The notes beneath the pieces are model-generated. The model made no database searches. It was not told the DNA's origin and saw only the letters and a list, made by a program, of their open reading frames with translations. A program made the position numbers and the translations under genes. This document shows positions 44,513 to 63,338 of a stretch of DNA of 64,000 nucleotides, in pieces (within the stretch, counting starts at the first letter, position 1; each line of letters begins with the position of its first letter). This DNA comes from Enterobacteria phage RB18: sequence record NC_054906.1. One strand, 5' to 3'.

Positions 44513-45369
44513 ATTGCCATTTTCCCTTTAATTGCTGGATGCGATTCATAATTTTCAAGGATAAAATCTTTCGGTTTCATGTATTCAGTTAACCAGTAAA
44601 GCTGTGTTTCGGTGTCACAATTTCCAAACTCTATAGGCCAATCAATTTTAAGTTCACACAGTTCTTTAGGCTCACGACGTAAAATTTCTTTACATTGCGC
44701 AGTATGATTCATATAGATGTGAGTATTACCACCAGAAAATATCAAATCTCCTGGGATAAGATTACACATCTTAGCCACAATATGCGTCAAGGCAGCGTAC
44801 GAGGCAATGTTGAATGGCAATCCCAAGAAAACATCTACACTTCTTTGGTACCATTGTAAATCAAGATAACCATTACGCACATTAAACTGATAGAACATAT
44901 GACAGGGCGGTAATGCCATTTGATTGATTTCAGCTGGATTCCATGCTGAAACGATTTGACGTCGATCAGTTGGTAATTTTTTAATACGATCAATAGTTTC
45001 AACTAATTGATCCACACCGCCGAAATCACGCCATTGTTTACCGTATATAGGACCAAGTTCACCACTATGATATCCTAGGTCTTTAGCCTGGTTTTCATAG
45101 TTATCGTCCCAAATAGTTTTACCTTGAATAAGACTGCCATGAGTGCGAAGACGTAAATCATTAACATTGGTAGAACCGGAAATAAACCATAGAAGCTCAG
45201 CAATGCATGCATTCCAGGCGAGCTTTTTAGTTGTTACCGCAGGAAAACCTTTAGTTAAATCCCAGCGTAATTTAGTACCGAACAAAGCAATTGTTCCTGT
45301 GCCTGTTCGGTCATCGGTTTCATAGCCATTTTCAAAAATGTCTTTAATTAAATCTTGGTATTGTTTCAT
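44509..45369 (-). CDS. td: Thymidylate synthase, uninterrupted (286 aa)
   Basis: Active-site PPCH motif ([11 protein letters not shown]) in one continuous 286-codon frame; no intron. Confidence 0.93.
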
Positions 45370-45414
45370 TTAGTACCTTATATAAATTATAATACATTTT
45401 ATGAAGCTAAATAA

Positions 45415-45762
45415 TCAATACGGTTTAGCATCAAATTTTCTCTCAATTTCAGGCGTGAAATATAATTCTTTACCGCGTTTGGAAAAGCGACCAATAATAT
45501 GATAATTATTTTCATCAAATGTGATATTACCAATATCCATAGCTTTCAACCAAATATCGATATTTCTATCCAGCTTTATGTCAAAATTCCAATACGGAGA
45601 ACTATTACCGAAAATACTGCAAGCGGATTCAGTGAAACAACTGCTATAAATCTTGTCTTTAGGAACTACTAATTGATAGACGCCTTTAATAAACTGAGGA
45701 CCTTGCCATTTTGGCTGTTTCACGTCTTTTTCTAATAGAATAGGGTAATAATTAAAATTCAT
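45415..45762 (-). CDS. Hypothetical protein between frd and td (115 aa from first ATG; track ORF starts at GTG 45774)
   Basis: Continuous ORF filling the frd-td junction; no recognisable motif. Confidence 0.6.
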   Translation of the reverse strand: MNFNYYPILLEKDVKQPKWQGPQFIKGVYQLVVPKDKIYSSCFTESACSIFGNSSPYWNFDIKLDRNIDIWLKAMDIGNITFDENNYHIIGRFSKRGKELYFTPEIERKFDAKPY

Positions 45763-45782
45763 ATTTTCCGCCACGCGTTATT

Positions 45783-46609
<827 letters not shown>

Positions 46610-46620
46610 ATTATCTCCTA

Positions 46621-46953
46621 TTAAAAAGGATCAGGAACATATCCGCTAGCTTTAATCATTTTAATTAACGTTAACATTCCTTTGTTAACTGCTCGTGAGA
46701 TTTCATCAAAAACTTCATCACTAAAAAGTTCTAACACGCCCTTCTGAACTTTTAATTTACAGCCAACAATTTCTTCATCGCCTATAGTAAATTCATTACC
46801 ACCAATTCCACCGAAAAACTTAATTACACCAGTTAACTGTCTTCCACGAGAATATGGGTCGTGTGATAAAGTAATATGAGTCACCCCGGGTACAGTTTTA
46901 AATTGGCAGCGAATATTTACTTGTGAAATTCCAGTTACATGAATGTCAGACAT
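46621..46953 (-). CDS. Hypothetical protein (110 aa, T4 frd.2 position)
   Basis: ATG start. Confidence 0.6.
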   Translation of the reverse strand: MSDIHVTGISQVNIRCQFKTVPGVTHITLSHDPYSRGRQLTGVIKFFGGIGGNEFTIGDEEIVGCKLKVQKGVLELFSDEVFDEISRAVNKGMLTLIKMIKASGYVPDPF

Positions 46954-46963
46954 AATATTTTCC

Positions 46964-47206
46964 TCAAATAGACTTTTTCACAATTTTCCAATCAGCTTTA
47001 AACTGATCAACGTCAGAGTGATAAATCCAAAATCCTGCGCTTTCACCGTCTTCATAAAGCGGACACCCATCGCATTCATCTTCCCATCCCATATCACGCA
47101 AAAGATGTTCAGCTTTTTCAACAAGCTCAGAATCTTTACCGATGATATTAAAATACCATTTACCTCTAACTTCTGAATCTTTGATGCTCTGACGTTGTAA
47201 TCTCAT
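46964..47206 (-). CDS. Hypothetical protein (80 aa, T4 frd.3 position)
   Basis: Track ORF starts at TTG 47263 inside the promoter; internal ATG 47204-47206 has AAGGAG SD. Confidence 0.6.
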   Translation of the reverse strand: MRLQRQSIKDSEVRGKWYFNIIGKDSELVEKAEHLLRDMGWEDECDGCPLYEDGESAGFWIYHSDVDQFKADWKIVKKSI

Positions 47207-47226
47207 TTTATTCTCCTTAGTTGATA

Positions 47227-47261
47227 AGGCTATAGTATCACTACCATAGCCTGTTGTAAAC
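47227..47261 (-). promoter_or_regulatory. Early-type promoter GTTTAC-N18-TACTAT with 7-bp inverted repeat (AGGCTAT / ATAGCCT) around the -10
   Basis: -35 = rc of 47256-47261; -10 = rc of 47232-47237; IR arms 47227-47233 and 47246-47252. Confidence 0.55.
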
Positions 47262-47263
47262 AA

Positions 47264-47524
47264 TTATTTTTGAATTTTATCAAGCCACTTACCAAGCTTA
47301 ATCATTTCTTTAGTAGCCTTTTCCATACTTCTGAACTTAACCAATAGAGGATAGGTATCGACACCCATAACTAAGCTAGTTACAAGACTGTGTTCACCCA
47401 CAAGCCATAACGAATACGTTTGAATATCGAGCCCGTAATTTCTGTCTTTATGGACCCGTACACCCATCACTTCAAATTTCTCACTAGCTTTTTCTACCGC
47501 ATCCAGGAAATCATCTTTAGTCAT
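47264..47524 (-). CDS. Hypothetical protein (start uncertain: 47566 or coupled internal ATG 47524)
   Basis: ATG 47522-47524 lies 1 nt after upstream stop. Confidence 0.5.
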   Translation of the reverse strand: MTKDDFLDAVEKASEKFEVMGVRVHKDRNYGLDIQTYSLWLVGEHSLVTSLVMGVDTYPLLVKFRSMEKATKEMIKLGKWLDKIQK

Positions 47525-47525
47525 A

Positions 47526-47906
47526 TTAGGCCTTAAAAGTTTTTCGCAAAAGTTCAATGATTTCATCTACATTGTTTTCGTCAACAATGCAGTGAATTTT
47601 TGTTACGCCAGAAACCTTGTCTTTGACTTCATCTTTTTCAGAAGTCGGTTCTTTATACTCACGAAAACAATGAAATTCGTCTTCGCAAATTTCTAAAAGT
47701 CTATCTTTGAGGTAAAAATGCTTTCCATTTGCGCATTCAATGTGTTTTACTGCTTTATATCCATTAGCGACGGAAACTTCTTTAACTTCAAACCATCCGC
47801 CATTATCTCGAATCGCTTTAACTATTGATGAATTAGAACGTGGGCTATAATTAATAAATGTATCAATAAGTCTTGGAACAAGCTCATACTTTTTACCGGT
47901 ATACAT
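47526..47906 (-). CDS. Hypothetical Cys-containing protein (126 aa)
   Basis: ATG start; several Cys/His residues. Confidence 0.55.
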   Translation of the reverse strand: MYTGKKYELVPRLIDTFINYSPRSNSSIVKAIRDNGGWFEVKEVSVANGYKAVKHIECANGKHFYLKDRLLEICEDEFHCFREYKEPTSEKDEVKDKVSGVTKIHCIVDENNVDEIIELLRKTFKA

Positions 47907-47951
47907 TACGTTTTCCTCATTTTAATAGGGGCTGTAATAGCCCCTCGATAA

Positions 47952-48200
47952 TTATTGTTCAATCAGTCCCATGTAAAATTCTGCGTCTTCAGAATCCATG
48001 CCATCACAGTATTCATTAGCCATAAAGCGGGTGAGGTCTTCAAGAGGACCTTCAATAACAATTTGAATACTCCAAAACTTAGAATCTTGCACGCTTGTGA
48101 TACTAAGTTCAGGATAACGATTACGAATAATTTCTTCGATATATTCAAAATCAACGATGTCAATATCAACTTTAGCCATATTATTTTCCTCTTTAATCAT
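47952..48200 (-). CDS. Small highly acidic hypothetical protein (82 aa)
   Basis: ATG with AAAGAGGAAAA SD; own early-type promoter 48223-48252; about 21 D/E versus 6 K/R. Confidence 0.6.
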
Positions 48201-48222
48201 CAGCAGTATTGCCGATAGTTGT

Positions 48223-48252
48223 ATAGTACCATGGAAGAACAGGGATGTAAAC
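48223..48252 (-). promoter_or_regulatory. Early-type promoter GTTTAC-N18-TACTAT for the acidic 82-aa ORF
   Basis: -35 = rc of 48247-48252; -10 = rc of 48223-48228. Confidence 0.55.
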
Positions 48253-48275
48253 AGTTTTGTGAAAAAATTTTTGAA

Positions 48276-48302
48276 ATAAAAAAGGGGACCCTAGAGGTCC
48301 CC
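48276..48302 (-). terminator. Rho-independent terminator after gene 32: GGGGACC-CTAGA-GGTCCCC + T8 (minus strand)
   Basis: 7-bp stem, A-run 48276-48283 on plus strand. Confidence 0.85.
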
Positions 48303-48324
48303 AATTAATTAGTAATATAATCTA

Positions 48325-49233
48325 TTAAAGGTCATTCAAAAGGTCATCCAGGTCCGTGTCATCAGCACTAGATGAACTGCCAGAGCTTGAGCTCATAAAA
48401 TCATCTTCAGTTTTTGTATTGAAGTCATCAACATTGAATGCATCCAAATCATCAGCAACTTTATCAGCTTTCTTAGCGGCAGTTGCTGCGGCACCGCCCA
48501 TCACAGCAGTTCCCATAACTTGACCGAATTTAGTGCTCAGTTCTTCAAACGATTTGAATTTATCTTTAGAAGTCATTTCAGAAAGGTCAACCATTTGTTC
48601 GAACAGTTCTTTCTGGAAAGATTCATCGTCAATGTTTGGAATCGCAGATTGATTCAGGAATTTAGATTCGTCGTAGTTACTAAATCCAGAAACTTGTTTA
48701 ACTTTCAGTACAAAGTTAGCACCTTCCCACGGACAAGTTACATCAACCGGAGTTTCACCCATTTCAACATCAACTGCAATCATTGCATTGATTTTATCCC
48801 AGATTTTCTTACCGAAACGGTATTTAAATACTTTACCTTCATTTTCTGGAGCAGCTGGGTCTTTTACTACAAGAATGTTAGCCCAGTAAGAAGTTTTACG
48901 TTTAACAAGACTGTACTCTTTATTGTCAGTGTTGTACAGATCATTTTTACTAATGTATTGACATACTGGGCAAGAATCGTAATCACCGTGGGTAGATGAA
49001 CAGTTTTCAATATACCATTTACCATTTTTCTTGAAACCGTGATTTACAAGAATTGCGAATGGTGCTTGTTCATCATTTTTAGACGGAAGAAAACGAATTA
49101 CTGCTTGACCGTTACCCGCATTATCGAGTTTCAGTTTCCACTCGCCTTTATCTTCAGAAGAAAAACCGCCTTTATTTCCAGCCAGTTTAGCCATTTGTGC
49201 AGCGAGTTCAGCAGTAGATTTACGTTTAAACAT
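48325..49233 (-). CDS. 32: Single-stranded DNA-binding protein gp32 (302 aa)
   Basis: Sequence recognised (zinc-binding H/C cluster, acidic Ser/Asp C-terminus); leader pseudoknot upstream; terminator downstream. Confidence 0.95.
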
Positions 49234-49267
49234 TTTTATTTCCTTTTTAATTTAATTAACAGTTGGT

Positions 49268-49299
49268 GCTATGACGATGTATGACCTCATAGCTGGTCA
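49268..49299 (-). promoter_or_regulatory. Gene 32 mRNA leader H-type pseudoknot (autoregulatory translational operator)
   Basis: Minus-strand RNA UGACC-A-GCUAUGA-GGUCA-UACAUCG-UCAUAGC: interleaved stems UGACC/GGUCA and GCUAUGA/UCAUAGC; matches known T4 gene 32 element. Confidence 0.85.
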
Positions 49300-49316
49300 G
49301 TGAGATAATTATAATC

Positions 49317-49324
49317 TATTTATA
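49317..49324 (-). promoter_or_regulatory. Late promoter TATAAATA on minus strand upstream of gene 32 leader
   Basis: Forward TATTTATA. Confidence 0.55.
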
Positions 49325-49332
49325 ATAAGCAA

Positions 49333-49986
49333 TTAATACTTGCAAGATTTCACAGTTTCAATAAAAACACTTTTAGCTTTCTGTGAATCAATATTTAAAA
49401 TTTTTCTATAAGCCTTTAACTTTATAGAATAATTATTCCAGACTAAATTATCAGTCTGTTCATCATGTTTATCAATTATATTTAAAAACGAATCAAGCAA
49501 GATAAACGTCTCAAACGAAATTATATTTGATTGAAGTAGTTTAAAAATATAACTTGATTGAACTTTTGGATTATACTCAAAAATTTCTTTAAAAGCAGAA
49601 ACTTCAACTTTTTTACTAAAATAATAAATGTTGCGAATATCTTCTTCAAACTTAAATTTAATTTGCTTTAAGCGTCCGATATATTCACGATAAAACACAA
49701 GTGCATCAGCGTCAGAGATGTCACCAATCCAAGCATCTTGGTTAGCAACCAAATTACTTATAAAGATTAAAGCAAGTTCCTTTAATTTATATTTTTCTGA
49801 TAACTTCTGGAAAAAATACTTATCCCTTCGCTTTTGATAAGCGGCATCAGACACCCGCATGCACCAATTATACTTAATAACATCATACTTTCCATTCATA
49901 TGTTGTTTTATCATTAAGTATAATTTATAAACTGATTTACCATCAATGTATCTTTCACCACCAGCAGGCATGCGGAGTTTAATCAT
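49333..49986 (-). CDS. 59: Helicase loader gp59 (217 aa)
   Basis: 217 aa; adjacent to gene 32. Confidence 0.9.
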   Translation of the reverse strand: MIKLRMPAGGERYIDGKSVYKLYLMIKQHMNGKYDVIKYNWCMRVSDAAYQKRRDKYFFQKLSEKYKLKELALIFISNLVANQDAWIGDISDADALVFYREYIGRLKQIKFKFEEDIRNIYYFSKKVEVSAFKEIFEYNPKVQSSYIFKLLQSNIISFETFILLDSFLNIIDKHDEQTDNLVWNNYSIKLKAYRKILNIDSQKAKSVFIETVKSCKY

Positions 49987-50321
49987 AGTAGAAAATCTAA
50001 TGTATTAGTTTTTTCACAACGAACAACAGAAGGACGTAAAAGATTTTCGTCAATAGCTTCTGACTGAATTTTTTCAATTATACCCGAAGGAATAAATTTA
50101 GCAAATTGGGTTTCAGGAATAGAGTTTTCTTCCAAGAATGCTGTCGTAGCTTCAAGATAACTCATTCCAAACTCTTCTACCATTTTTTCAATGATAAATC
50201 CATTTTCTTGACGATCAAGAAGCTTTGCAATTTCATCCTTTTCTTTCTTAAGGGAAAGTTCTTTTTCTGAAAGCCCGGCCTCATCGACCGGACGAATATC
50301 ATTTAGAGAAAACTGTGTCAT
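49983..50321 (-). CDS. 33: Late transcription accessory protein gp33 (112 aa)
   Basis: Track start is TTG 50330; ATG 50321 gives MTQFSLNDIRP N-terminus. Confidence 0.88.
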   Translation of the reverse strand: MTQFSLNDIRPVDEAGLSEKELSLKKEKDEIAKLLDRQENGFIIEKMVEEFGMSYLEATTAFLEENSIPETQFAKFIPSGIIEKIQSEAIDENLLRPSVVRCEKTNTLDFLL

Positions 50322-50568
50322 AAAGTTCAACTACCTCTTCAGTTTCAGCTTCAAACACATCACGATTATCTTTATGATACAAAGCTAATAGACGATTAAA
50401 CATCTTACCATCAACGCCAAGTTCATCTTTAGCACGAATTCGAATATCTTTAATCAGTTCATTATAACCGGAAATTTTCAGTTTATGATCAGATGCTTCT
50501 TTAATAAATTTAGCCAAGTCTTCGCCATGGATAGCTTCATCAAATTCAACCATTTCTTTTTTAGCCAT
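50299..50568 (-). CDS. dsbA: dsDNA-binding protein DsbA (89 aa)
   Basis: 89 aa; overlaps gene 33 start. Confidence 0.88.
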   Translation of the reverse strand: MAKKEMVEFDEAIHGEDLAKFIKEASDHKLKISGYNELIKDIRIRAKDELGVDGKMFNRLLALYHKDNRDVFEAETEEVVELYDTVFSK

Positions 50569-62625: not shown

Positions 62626-62898
62626 TTATTTGTTCGTATACATCTCTAGATATCGATATACACCCTCAAAACCCTCGTTGAATTCGTCGATGAGGGTTTT
62701 CTTATCTTCTTGAGTTAATTCAGAAACAATTTTACGGAATGAATTCTGATTTAATTTTCTACCTTCATGCGTTACTCCAATCTCATTCAGAAATGCAATA
62801 AAATTAGCACGATTCTCAACAATATCTTCTCTGGAAAATTTAATCAAAATAGACGCAATAGTAATAATTTCACGAACTGTATCAATATTTTTATTCAT
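62626..62898 (-). CDS. asiA: Anti-sigma70 factor AsiA (90 aa)
   Basis: MNKNIDTVREIIT... sequence recognised; 90 aa. Confidence 0.93.
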   Translation of the reverse strand: MNKNIDTVREIITIASILIKFSREDIVENRANFIAFLNEIGVTHEGRKLNQNSFRKIVSELTQEDKKTLIDEFNEGFEGVYRYLEMYTNK

Positions 62899-62910
62899 TA
62901 ACTATACCAC

Positions 62911-63063
62911 TCAATTAGTTGACTTTGTTATAATATCATCAGACGCTTGATTTGTAAACTGGTCTGTGTTATTTTCTTCAAAAATTTTTTCTACGAATTC
63001 CTTGAACGACTCACGTTCCTGAGCTACATTATGCTCGATTACCATTTCAAGATTATGACTCAT
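62911..63063 (-). CDS. Small hypothetical protein (50 aa, acidic)
   Basis: Not in ORF track; ATG 63061-63063 overlaps arn stop (ATGA); translated by hand to MSHNLEMVIEHNVAQERESFKEF... Confidence 0.45.
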   Translation of the reverse strand: MSHNLEMVIEHNVAQERESFKEFVEKIFEENNTDQFTNQASDDIITKSTN

Positions 63064-63338
63064 TCGAAATAATCTTCAATTTCGTAATCATGGACATAAA
63101 ACATTATAGTTTTTAATACATCATCGATACTTTTTCCTGGAGCTGGAATTACGTAAAAATATCCTGCTTTTGAGAGGTCTTTATAAGTTCCAATCAAGAA
63201 ATCATTATTCTCGAGATGTAGTTCTTCAACTAATTCATTAACAATTGAGTGGTATAAATTTGGTAGAAACTTATATAGCTTTTCTAGAATATCAATTTTG
63301 ATTGTGTATTGAACCACAGACTGAGAATCAATAATCAT
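63060..63338 (-). CDS. arn: Anti-restriction nuclease protein Arn (92 aa)
   Basis: 92 aa acidic protein; sequence and position next to asiA. Confidence 0.88.
   Translation of the reverse strand: MIIDSQSVVQYTIKIDILEKLYKFLPNLYHSIVNELVEELHLENNDFLIGTYKDLSKAGYFYVIPAPGKSIDDVLKTIMFYVHDYEIEDYFE

Follow-up and report, generated by a model that had tools for sequence, protein, structure and literature searches.

What are the three small open reading frames (ORFs) that lie between gene 32 and the frd-proximal small genes of Enterobacteria phage RB18, and does the most acidic of them encode a DNA mimic? The window analysed here, a 64,000-nucleotide stretch of record NC_054906.1, is phage DNA of a T2/T4-like Tequatrovirus. 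An earlier examination based on the letters alone (the sequence-only reading) had reported three small ORFs upstream of gene 32, and these were located on the minus strand at 47952–48200 (82 aa), 47526–47906 (126 aa) and 47264–47566 (100 aa). That reading could not place the ORFs on the T4 map, which proved wrong for two of the three: the 82-aa ORF is Frd.3 and the 126-aa ORF is Frd.2, each with a Pfam family of its own. By homology, the block can be assigned to the long-annotated T4 early genes frd.3 and frd.2, together with a third, mobile gene of 86 aa (Table 1). The order 32, frd.3, frd.2 is shared with the annotation of T4 and T2, the small genes on the frd side of the block are frd.1 and two ORFs without a T4 counterpart, and the entire 1.1-kb block is present in 73 phage records at 94–99% identity. 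The genes were already known from T4 annotation, from Pfam and PHROG families and from near-identical copies in dozens to hundreds of phages. As frd.3 and frd.2 are known in T4 and the 86-aa gene is found in hundreds of phages, the block is ordinary T-even accessory gene content. Of the ORF sizes given previously, 126 aa stood, while the 82-aa and 100-aa forms begin at long starts that are probably unused, the products probably being 75 and 86 aa. An Rfam scan of positions 45000–50500 returned no credible RNA family, an NCBIfam search gave zero matches, and PDB sequence and profile searches with all three proteins yielded nothing at or below E = 0.09.

Table 1. Features of the gene 32–frd.1 interval, and the arn gene of the same window.
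Feature	Position	Strand	Basis
Gene 32 intrinsic terminator hairpin (GGGGACC...GGTCCCC + T-run)	48284..48302	-	Terminator scan; fold -15.2 kcal/mol
frd.3 T4-type early promoter: -35 GTTTACA, 17-nt spacer, extended -10 TGgTACTAT	48223..48252	-	Pattern match, conservation
frd.3 CDS, 75 aa (MAKVDIDI...); longest form, 82 aa, reaches 48200	47952..48179	-	Pfam, T4 annotation, Shine-Dalgarno
7-bp GC-rich hairpin, frd.3/frd.2 gap	47927..47945	-	Fold -12.7 kcal/mol, z = -2.5
frd.2 CDS, 126 aa	47526..47906	-	Pfam PF03197, protein alignment
86-aa accessory ORF, no Pfam family	47264..47524	-	PHROG 4423, Shine-Dalgarno, genome comparison
frd.1 early promoter GTTTACA-N17-TACTAT (47261-47232) with overlapping 11-bp hairpin (47252-47227)	47227..47261	-	
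Arn gene	63060-63338		

The first gene past gene 32 matches Pfam PF05798 (Phage_FRD3; 135.2 bits, cut-off 28.1), with residues 8–82 of the long form covering positions 1–75 of the 75-residue profile. Its product is 100% identical to T2 Frd.3 and 98.8% identical to that of T4 (over 82 codons), and it is the ortholog of the T4 protein listed in UniProt as P39508, 'uncharacterized 8.8 kDa protein in frd-Gp32 intergenic region'. The site just after the gene 32 terminator, the promoter hexamers, the Shine-Dalgarno sequence and the start codon are all shared with T4 frd.3. Unlike T4, this phage and T2 have an in-frame upstream ATG that yields a nominal 82-aa ORF. Since this upstream ATG reads ATA in T4, and the second ATG (48179) is preceded by a GAGG Shine-Dalgarno sequence and gives the 75 aa annotated in T4, the true product is almost certainly 75 aa and the long start is probably not used. 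An AlphaFold2 model of Frd.3 predicts a compact alpha/beta fold with the order beta-alpha-beta-beta-alpha-alpha (pLDDT 94.5). When this model was compared with the PDB using Foldseek, no significant match was obtained; the best hits, BMC-H shell proteins at E = 0.04, and the BMC-H/ACT-like likeness in general (TM about 0.5, E ≥ 0.04) were set aside as generic two-layer alpha/beta sandwich similarity. A profile search against PDB sequences gave zero matches, and the viral structure library returned uncharacterised Straboviridae orthologs only. Against 1.8 billion representative proteins, the Frd.3 profile found seven matches, six of which were short proteins or fragments aligned from profile residue 1; the other, a 2044-aa protein with 11 matched stretches, is a Cys-rich repeat protein and was rejected as spurious. 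A RelB-like Pfam match to residues 1–27 of the long form was likewise rejected (17.9 bits versus a cut-off of 27). By these searches, Frd.3 appears to be confined to T4-like phages.

The sequence-only reading had assigned this gene a dedicated GTTTAC-N18-TACTAT promoter, and the promoter is present: the motif is identical to TTTACA-N17-TACTAT at 48252–48223, with a -10 element extended by TG. It fits the T4/PST early consensus TTTACW-N17-TAYWAT (PMC4122927). The pattern GTTTACW-N17-TAYWAT occurs six times in the window, always on the minus strand, where 0.05 matches are expected and none of 100 shuffled sequences reached six; a generic sigma-70 scan of the window showed no enrichment (10 found versus 10.9 expected). 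The spacer of the frd.3 promoter diverges across T4, T2 and TadeuszReichstein, yet both hexamers stay unchanged. No promoter is annotated here in the GenBank records of T4. In T4, frd.3 RNA belongs to the early class, frd.3 and frd.2 are expressed early as RNA and as protein (PMC9697503 supplement), and frd.3 is among the abundant NAD-capped RNAs (bioRxiv 10.1101/2024.04.04.588121). Judged by its sequence the frd.3 early promoter is genuine, and the T4 data suggest that it would be active here; the earlier description of small early genes with a T4-type early promoter of their own thus stood. Upstream, the gene 32 terminator is kept in T4 and T2 with its central stem and loop bases rearranged. 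The hairpin (48302–48284), the AT-rich tract that follows it and the promoter make up a composite of terminator and early promoter, an element of PeSL (promoter-early stem-loop) type in which the hairpin forms the upstream half. A further hairpin, located in the gap between frd.3 and frd.2, has the same stem in T4 with a different loop. Because it lacks a U-run, it is likelier to be an attenuator or RNA-stability element than a full terminator, and it probably acts as one of the two.

The second gene, frd.2, matches Pfam PF03197 (FRD2; 114 bits, cut-off 29) over residues 28–125, and its product aligns end to end with Frd.2 of T4 and T2 (identity: T4 64.8%, T2 80.8%, TadeuszReichstein 100%). 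This similarity is unevenly distributed, and the DNA identity of frd.2 is mosaic: the N-terminal domain is variable, whereas about 27 C-terminal residues are nearly invariant. Compared with T4 Frd.2 (P39507), the gene order is the same, the Pfam match is full-length and the C-terminal 27 aa are identical save the last residue, but in the N-terminal domain identity drops to about 60%; this is a distinct allele, closest to TadeuszReichstein and then to T2. The protein contains four Cys and four His residues, in agreement with the several Cys/His residues seen earlier. A zinc site was considered and found unsupported, as C58, C79, H105 and C106 are conserved only in the T4/T2/S16 group, and C58 and C79 are missing from the subgroup that has diverged most. 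In one published study (PMC12152347), AlphaFold3 predicts an LSm-like/SH3-like N-terminal domain for Frd.2, the protein is grouped on predicted structure with GoF and MotB.1 in a Tevenvirinae LSm-like fold family, and a T4 frd.2 amber mutant is described as plating normally. The hallmark of this fold family is a five-stranded, bent antiparallel beta-sheet at the N terminus. In a CRISPRi-ART knock-down of T4, frd.2 was marginally 'Fit' (0.83, p = 0.027), whereas frd.3 was 'Not fit' (-0.49, p = 0.86; PMC11879866 supplement); genome-wide, frd.2 was the sole T4 gene of unassigned function to be scored 'Fit'. This call and the viability of the amber mutant are hard to reconcile; the role of Frd.2 may be weightier than the word 'accessory' implies, or the frd.2 knock-down may be polar.

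The third ORF has a different history. Residues 15–100 of the long form match positions 1–86 of the 86-residue PHROG 4423 profile (E = 1.4e-49), and the 100-aa form opens with 14 codons of frd.2 sequence read out of frame, which T4 has too although it lacks the gene. Since the family profile begins at residue 15, the product is probably 86 aa and the 100-aa start is probably unused. The ORF lacks a promoter. Its ATG stands 1 nt past the frd.2 stop codon (TAAtATG), and its AAGG Shine-Dalgarno sequence is embedded in the final codons of frd.2. It is missing from T4, T2 and e11/2, and its indel edges are clean, running from the frd.2 stop codon to the -35 element of the frd.1 promoter. Homologs were found in 347 phage records, including Phapecoctavirus, Webervirus and Pectobacterium and Pantoea phages; they are distributed over Straboviridae, Stephanstirmvirinae and Drexlerviridae and always stand inside arrays of small hypothetical early genes. 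The clean edges and this distribution mark the ORF, which is promoter-less, as a mobile cassette shared with unrelated phage families. Its AlphaFold2 model reached a pLDDT of 70, and the best PDB hit of that model in Foldseek, at E = 0.41, was not significant.

The block ends downstream at the frd.1 promoter, which is also where the insertion has its right-hand junction; in T4 and T2 this promoter adjoins the frd.2 stop codon directly (TAG-TTTACA). The hairpin that overlaps it has a fold of -15.6 kcal/mol (z = -3.4), and its stem carries paired changes in T4 and Melville. Recombination at promoter and stem-loop junctions has been modelled for the hyperplastic regions of T4-type phages, in which small variable ORFs are flanked by PeSL cassettes made up of a terminator or stem-loop, AT-rich DNA and a TTTACW-N17-TAYWAT promoter (Arbiol 2010; Comeau 2014; PMC2839356, PMC4122927). 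The same components are found here, with an ORFan-sized indel directly at such an element, the frd.1 promoter. Two differences from PeSL cassettes were observed: the frd.1 hairpin lies across the spacer and the -10 element and not upstream of the promoter, and the other junction of the 86-aa ORF lies within the last, coding codons of frd.2 and has no second PeSL.

Taken together, it is very likely that the block is a conserved T-even early unit, frd.3-frd.2, extended in this lineage by a promoter-less mobile 86-aa ORFan. Host sigma-70 RNA polymerase would start near 48216, from the T4-type early promoter just past the gene 32 terminator, and transcription would proceed through frd.3 and, beyond the small hairpin, through frd.2 and the 86-aa ORF, which is translationally coupled, to the promoter and hairpin of frd.1; the elements of this scheme are present in the sequence, and their activity is extrapolated from T4 data. 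The 86-aa ORF would have been inserted at one of the promoter/stem-loop junctions that are described as recombination points of T4-type hyperplastic regions. From the size, timing, dispensability and distribution of the three proteins, we infer that their likeliest role would be that of non-essential early accessory factors which bind host or phage macromolecules and tune infection according to host.

Small ORFs in a hyperplastic region might instead be chance or decaying frames that yield no functional protein. All three ORFs are small and lie in such a region, the 86-aa model is of modest pLDDT, and knock-down of frd.3 or frd.1 gave no phenotype. However, each ORF belongs to a family that is conserved at the protein level in hundreds of genomes, with identity down to about 32–38%, Shine-Dalgarno sequences are present at the conserved starts, the Frd.3 and Frd.2 proteins are found early in the T4 proteome, and the fold of Frd.3 is predicted with high confidence. 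For frd.3 and frd.2 this reading is effectively refuted, and we consider it extremely improbable that it applies to any of the three.

As the sequence-only reading had put forward the acidic 82-aa product as a candidate anti-restriction or host-takeover factor, with DNA mimics such as Arn in view, Frd.3 was compared with Arn, the T4 anti-restriction DNA mimic (PDB 3WX4), whose gene lies in the same window and which, like Frd.3, is a small, early, acidic T-even protein. A mimic of the Arn or Ocr kind would be made right after infection and would act against the host, blocking either a nucleoid protein or a nuclease of restriction or defence. The acidity is not in doubt: the earlier count of about 21 D/E and 6 K/R came out at 20 and 6 for the 82-aa form, and the 75-aa form has 18 D/E and 5 K/R, a net charge of -13 and a pI of 4.05. 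Its charge per residue is -0.173 versus -0.098 for the genuine Arn, and among 87 greedy ORFs of the window it ranks second in net charge per residue, with gp67 alone above it. All members of the Frd.3 family are net negative (-5 to -14), clearly diverged orthologs included, and seven acidic positions are invariant in the family alignment; the acidic residues were also mapped, in one dimension, along the secondary-structure elements. The predicted fold is rigid, frd.3 is early in T4, and it is dispensable on the laboratory host, as expected of a host-specific counter-defence gene. Acidity is nevertheless a frequent trait of small T4-like proteins whose functions are unrelated, with gp67, UvsW.1 and an 81-aa ORF nearby as examples, and since 9 of 43 small ORFs of the window have a pI below 4.5, including the latter two, it is a weak criterion here. 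The equally acidic 81-aa neighbour showed no homology to Frd.3 when the two were compared. In the JS98/IME08 group, the net charge of Frd.3 is only -5. BLASTP of Frd.3 against Arn gave zero alignment, the predicted order of strands and helices in Frd.3 differs from that of Arn, the Frd.3 profile found nothing in the PDB, and known mimics were absent from the top 50 Foldseek matches, none of which was significant. The anti-restriction phenotype is Arn's, none is reported for Frd.3, and no Frd.3 phenotype of any kind was found in the published literature.

To our knowledge, DNA mimics have no one common fold, and the missing relationship to Arn or another mimic therefore lowers the case for Frd.3 without excluding mimicry. 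Nothing beyond acidity favours DNA mimicry, and neither Arn sequence similarity nor a significant PDB fold match accompanies it. We thus regard Arn/Ocr-like mimicry as quite unlikely; the evidence speaks neither for nor against a DNA-mimic role, and the proposal is speculation. A broader idea is that Frd.3, made in the first minutes of infection from its own early promoter, may be a nucleic-acid mimic or another small acidic protein that inhibits a defence or nucleoid protein of Enterobacterales, and that Frd.2, with a fast-swapping N-terminal domain joined to an invariant C-terminal segment, could be an arms-race module. It draws on charge, timing, dispensability and diversification pattern, and seems to us improbable. 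Another rival reading is a joint action on RNA, in which the LSm-like domain of Frd.2 would bind RNA and Frd.3 would serve as its partner or modulator, influencing the stability or translation of early mRNA. The two genes are adjacent and co-transcribed in Tequatrovirus, and the singular 'Fit' score of frd.2 is consistent with a shared function. In Mosigvirus ST0, however, the Frd.3 homolog is unlinked from both gene 32 and frd.2, which argues that the pairing is not obligatory. In addition, PMC12152347 reports that a reporter assay was unaffected by GoF and MotB.1 in wild-type form, the parts consulted giving no reporter result for Frd.2, and that the nearest structural relatives of the Frd.2 N-terminal domain are SH3 domains of the FeoA type, not Hfq. 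A joint role of this kind is unlikely.

The conserved early unit with its mobile third gene thus remains the preferred reading of the block. The sequence-only reading had set against its own proposal the case that these were conserved, named T4 genes of known and unrelated function; frd.3 and frd.2 are indeed named and conserved, while the part concerning function does not hold. The discovery value of the locus is small, and the useful output is a correction of labels: the three ORFs should be relabelled frd.3, frd.2 and PHROG 4423 cassette, with products of 75 aa for the first and 86 aa for the last. For the biology of these phages the window gives no lead beyond T4's own: Frd.3 and Frd.2 are conserved early proteins of the T-even phages.

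All genes of the region lie on the minus strand, and the three small ORFs that the sequence-only reading could not place on the T4 map are present in the window. Their block, 47264-48252, extends from the third ORF's stop codon to the first base of the frd.3 promoter -35. The acidic "82-aa" ORF was identified as Frd.3 (Pfam PF05798, Phage_FRD3; 135 bits, cut-off 28), with tblastn identities of 100% to T2 and 98.8% to T4 and homologs in 732 phage records, and the 126-aa ORF as Frd.2 (PF03197, FRD2; 114 bits, cut-off 29). The Pfam scan returned no family for the third ORF, hereafter ORF86, which matched PHROG 4423 (E = 1.4e-49) and has no counterpart in T4, T2 or e11/2. The T4 order is 32, frd.3, frd.2, frd.1, frd, and T2 is annotated identically. 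Of the small genes that had been described as frd-proximal, namely frd.1 (DUF5417), the DUF7247 ORF and the PHROG 3183 ORF, the last two do not occur in T4, nor does the DUF7247 ORF in T2. Since two of the supposedly unplaceable ORFs are named T4 genes, and only frd.1 of the frd-proximal ORFs is found in T4, the earlier map was inverted; its unplaced status holds for ORF86 alone.

The source genome is a T2/T4-like Tequatrovirus. The top DNA match to 47200-48330 was Escherichia phage TadeuszReichstein (98.7%, full length), and 596 phage records match this stretch, 73 of them over at least 80% of it. The homing-endonuclease gene segG is absent between genes 32 and 59 (49234-49332), as in T2 and unlike T4 and TadeuszReichstein. 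Directly downstream of frd is a 119-aa ORF (45415-45774), at whose place TadeuszReichstein has an ORF labelled 'putative homing endonuclease'. The PHROG 3183 ORF is also present, unannotated, between frd.1 and frd in T2 record AY310907. The PHROG 1764 profile is chimeric, matching gp32 on columns 1-294 (699 bits) and Frd.3 on columns 310-391, which probably explains the label 'putative single-stranded DNA-binding protein' on Frd.3 in phages JLBYU24 and Killian.

Features of the gene 59-frd region, with genes listed in the direction of transcription
Feature	Position	Strand	Remarks
gene 59	49333-49986	-	
gene 32	48325-49233	-	
gene 32 terminator hairpin	48302-48284	-	
frd.3 early promoter	48252-48223	-	GTTTACA, 17-nt spacer, TACTAT with TG upstream
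frd.3	47952-48200	-	"82-aa" ORF
frd.2	47526-47906	-	126-aa ORF
ORF86	47264-47566	-	"100-aa" ORF
frd.1	46964-47206	-	80-aa ORF, DUF5417
DUF7247 ORF	46621-46953	-	110-aa ORF
PHROG 3183 ORF	46364-46609	-	81-aa ORF
frd	45783-46364	-	

The ORFs, their composition and the promoter proved real, whereas the map placement and the proposed lengths of 82 and up to 100 aa did not hold, the products being 75 and 86 aa by Shine-Dalgarno, profile and annotation. Since a GAGG Shine-Dalgarno lies 8 nt upstream of the second frd.3 ATG (48179, MAKVD...), the T4 equivalent of the first ATG is ATA, and MAKVD is the start of the T4 annotation as well as of the Pfam profile, Frd.3 is almost certainly a 75-aa protein, judging from sequence; no Shine-Dalgarno was found ahead of the first ATG. 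The PHROG 4423 profile spans residues 15-100 of the long form of the third ORF, which is annotated as 86 aa in the closest genome. The 14 upstream codons are out-of-frame frd.2 sequence that T4 carries without ORF86. The ORF86 ATG, at 47524, falls one base past the frd.2 stop (TAAtATG), and its AAGG Shine-Dalgarno is made by the changed final two frd.2 codons.

The promoter proposed for the acidic ORF, GTTTAC-N18-TACTAT, is present. Scanning the region for generic sigma-70 sites proves nothing by itself, yielding 10 sites against 10.9 in shuffled sequence and hence no enrichment. Using the T4/PST early consensus TTTACW-N17-TAYWAT (PMC4122927) extended by a 5' G, we found six sites in the window against 0.05 expected, all on the minus strand, a number reached in none of 100 shuffles. 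Two of the six flank the block, upstream of frd.3 and upstream of frd.1 (47261-47232). When the window, T4, T2 and TadeuszReichstein were aligned, the frd.3 promoter hexamers and Shine-Dalgarno were invariant and the spacer was substituted, a pattern that fits a functional promoter. Published T4 data agree with early expression of frd.3 and frd.2: both are early class at the RNA and protein level (PMC9697503 supplement), and the NAD-capped T4 transcripts of highest abundance include that of frd.3 (bioRxiv 10.1101/2024.04.04.588121). The gene 32 terminator hairpin is followed by an AT-rich tract and then the frd.3 promoter, the composite terminator/promoter layout known as a promoter-early stem-loop, PeSL (PMC2839356, PMC4122927). 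The frd.3-frd.2 gap holds a conserved hairpin of 7 bp that lacks a U-run. The frd.1 early promoter has its spacer and -10 overlapped by an 11-bp hairpin (47227-47252; -15.6 kcal/mol, z = -3.4), the stem of which shows paired substitutions in T4 and in Melville; this hairpin could terminate or attenuate transcription that reads through from the frd.3 promoter.

Early expression and acidity, from which an anti-restriction role had been proposed by analogy with DNA mimics such as Arn, are both borne out; the 75-aa Frd.3 has 18 D/E against 5 K/R and a pI of 4.05. Net charge is negative throughout the family (-5 to -14), with seven invariant acidic positions, and of the window's 87 greedy non-overlapping ORFs only one exceeds Frd.3 in negative net charge per residue. 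Acidity is nevertheless not specific to Frd.3, because the prohead core protein gp67 is the most acidic and UvsW.1 and the adjoining 81-aa ORF are similarly charged. The 81-aa PHROG 3183 ORF also has 18 D/E and 5 K/R, and comparison with Frd.3 found the two unrelated. A genuine Arn is encoded at 63060-63338 on the minus strand (92 aa; PDB 3WX4, E = 4e-55); its charge per residue is less negative than that of Frd.3 (-0.098 versus -0.173), and the two show no similarity by BLASTP. Adjoining arn, at the place of T4 asiA, is a 90-aa ORF (62626-62898, minus strand). The AlphaFold2 model of Frd.3 is compact (beta-alpha-beta-beta-alpha-alpha, pLDDT 94.5), and no hit reached E <= 0.001 in a Foldseek search of the PDB, where the top matches were BMC-H shell proteins (E ~0.04, TM ~0.5), with no known DNA mimic in the top 50. 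Among viral models it matched only uncharacterised Straboviridae orthologs (TM 0.85-0.9), from Erwinia phage Cronus and Serratia phages X20 and Muldoon. Searching 1.8 billion representative proteins with the Frd.3 profile gave seven matches, six of them short proteins or fragments aligned from profile residue one; the other, a repeat protein, was rejected as spurious. Knock-down of T4 frd.3 by CRISPRi-ART had no fitness effect (PMC11879866). That Frd.3 is a DNA mimic, a reading with charge as its sole support, is unlikely, and an anti-restriction role is pure conjecture.

Frd.3 behaves as a free-standing module, and its gene is positionally mobile among Tevenvirinae, since in Mosigvirus ST0 (sequences L006 and L010) a homolog with 59% identity stands apart from gene 32 and frd.2, in another hypothetical-gene array. 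In ST0, gene 32 has frd.2 as its immediate downstream neighbour. Frd.2 itself is mosaic: its N-terminal ~95 aa range from ~36% to 97% identity among homologs, the low values occurring even between phages that are close elsewhere, and its last 27 residues are nearly invariant; by blastn frd.2 has no match to e11/2 over the 5' 290 nt, but its final 83 nt are 96% identical. Such a pattern suggests that N-terminal domains are exchanged between alleles as cassettes. In ST0, 14 of 29 third positions of the tail differ and 23 of 29 residues are kept, so it is the protein sequence of the tail that is constrained, and this holds across genera. As had been noticed, Frd.2 contains several Cys and His residues (four of each); only C58, C79, H105 and C106 are conserved, and this set is not kept in the most divergent subgroup. 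According to PMC12152347, AlphaFold3 gives the N-terminal domain an LSm/SH3-like fold common to GoF and MotB.1, and a frd.2 amber mutant is viable. Among T4 genes of unknown function, frd.2 alone is scored "Fit" by CRISPRi-ART (0.83, p = 0.027; PMC11879866).

In T4, T2 and e11/2 the frd.2 stop is fused to the frd.1 promoter -35 (TAG-TTTACA), and in the window ORF86 occupies exactly this junction, as a clean indel (47275-47532) by blastn against these three genomes. The DUF7247 ORF is a second clean indel (46620-46950), missing from the same genomes. In the T4 frd.2-frd.1 gap (NC_000866; 3741-3809 of our T4 sequence L002) there is a 22-codon hydrophobic mini-ORF, MFAPYIMAAVMLVCLYLLIKAC, with GGAG upstream, unannotated in two T4 records and lying inside an extra ~75 nt missing from T2 and the window. 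The AlphaFold2 model of ORF86 is of moderate confidence (pLDDT 70; helix, two strands, disordered loop, strand, helix) and had no significant PDB match. Homologs occur in 347 phage records, among them those of Phapecoctavirus (~59-61% identity), Klebsiella Webervirus siphophages (~42%) and Pectobacterium and Pantoea phages (32-34%), and lie within arrays of small hypothetical genes in both genomes inspected (one Phapecoctavirus, one Webervirus). ORF86 is a real early ORFan that is horizontally shared, and the block as a whole represents already known T-even gene content together with a common mobile ORFan.
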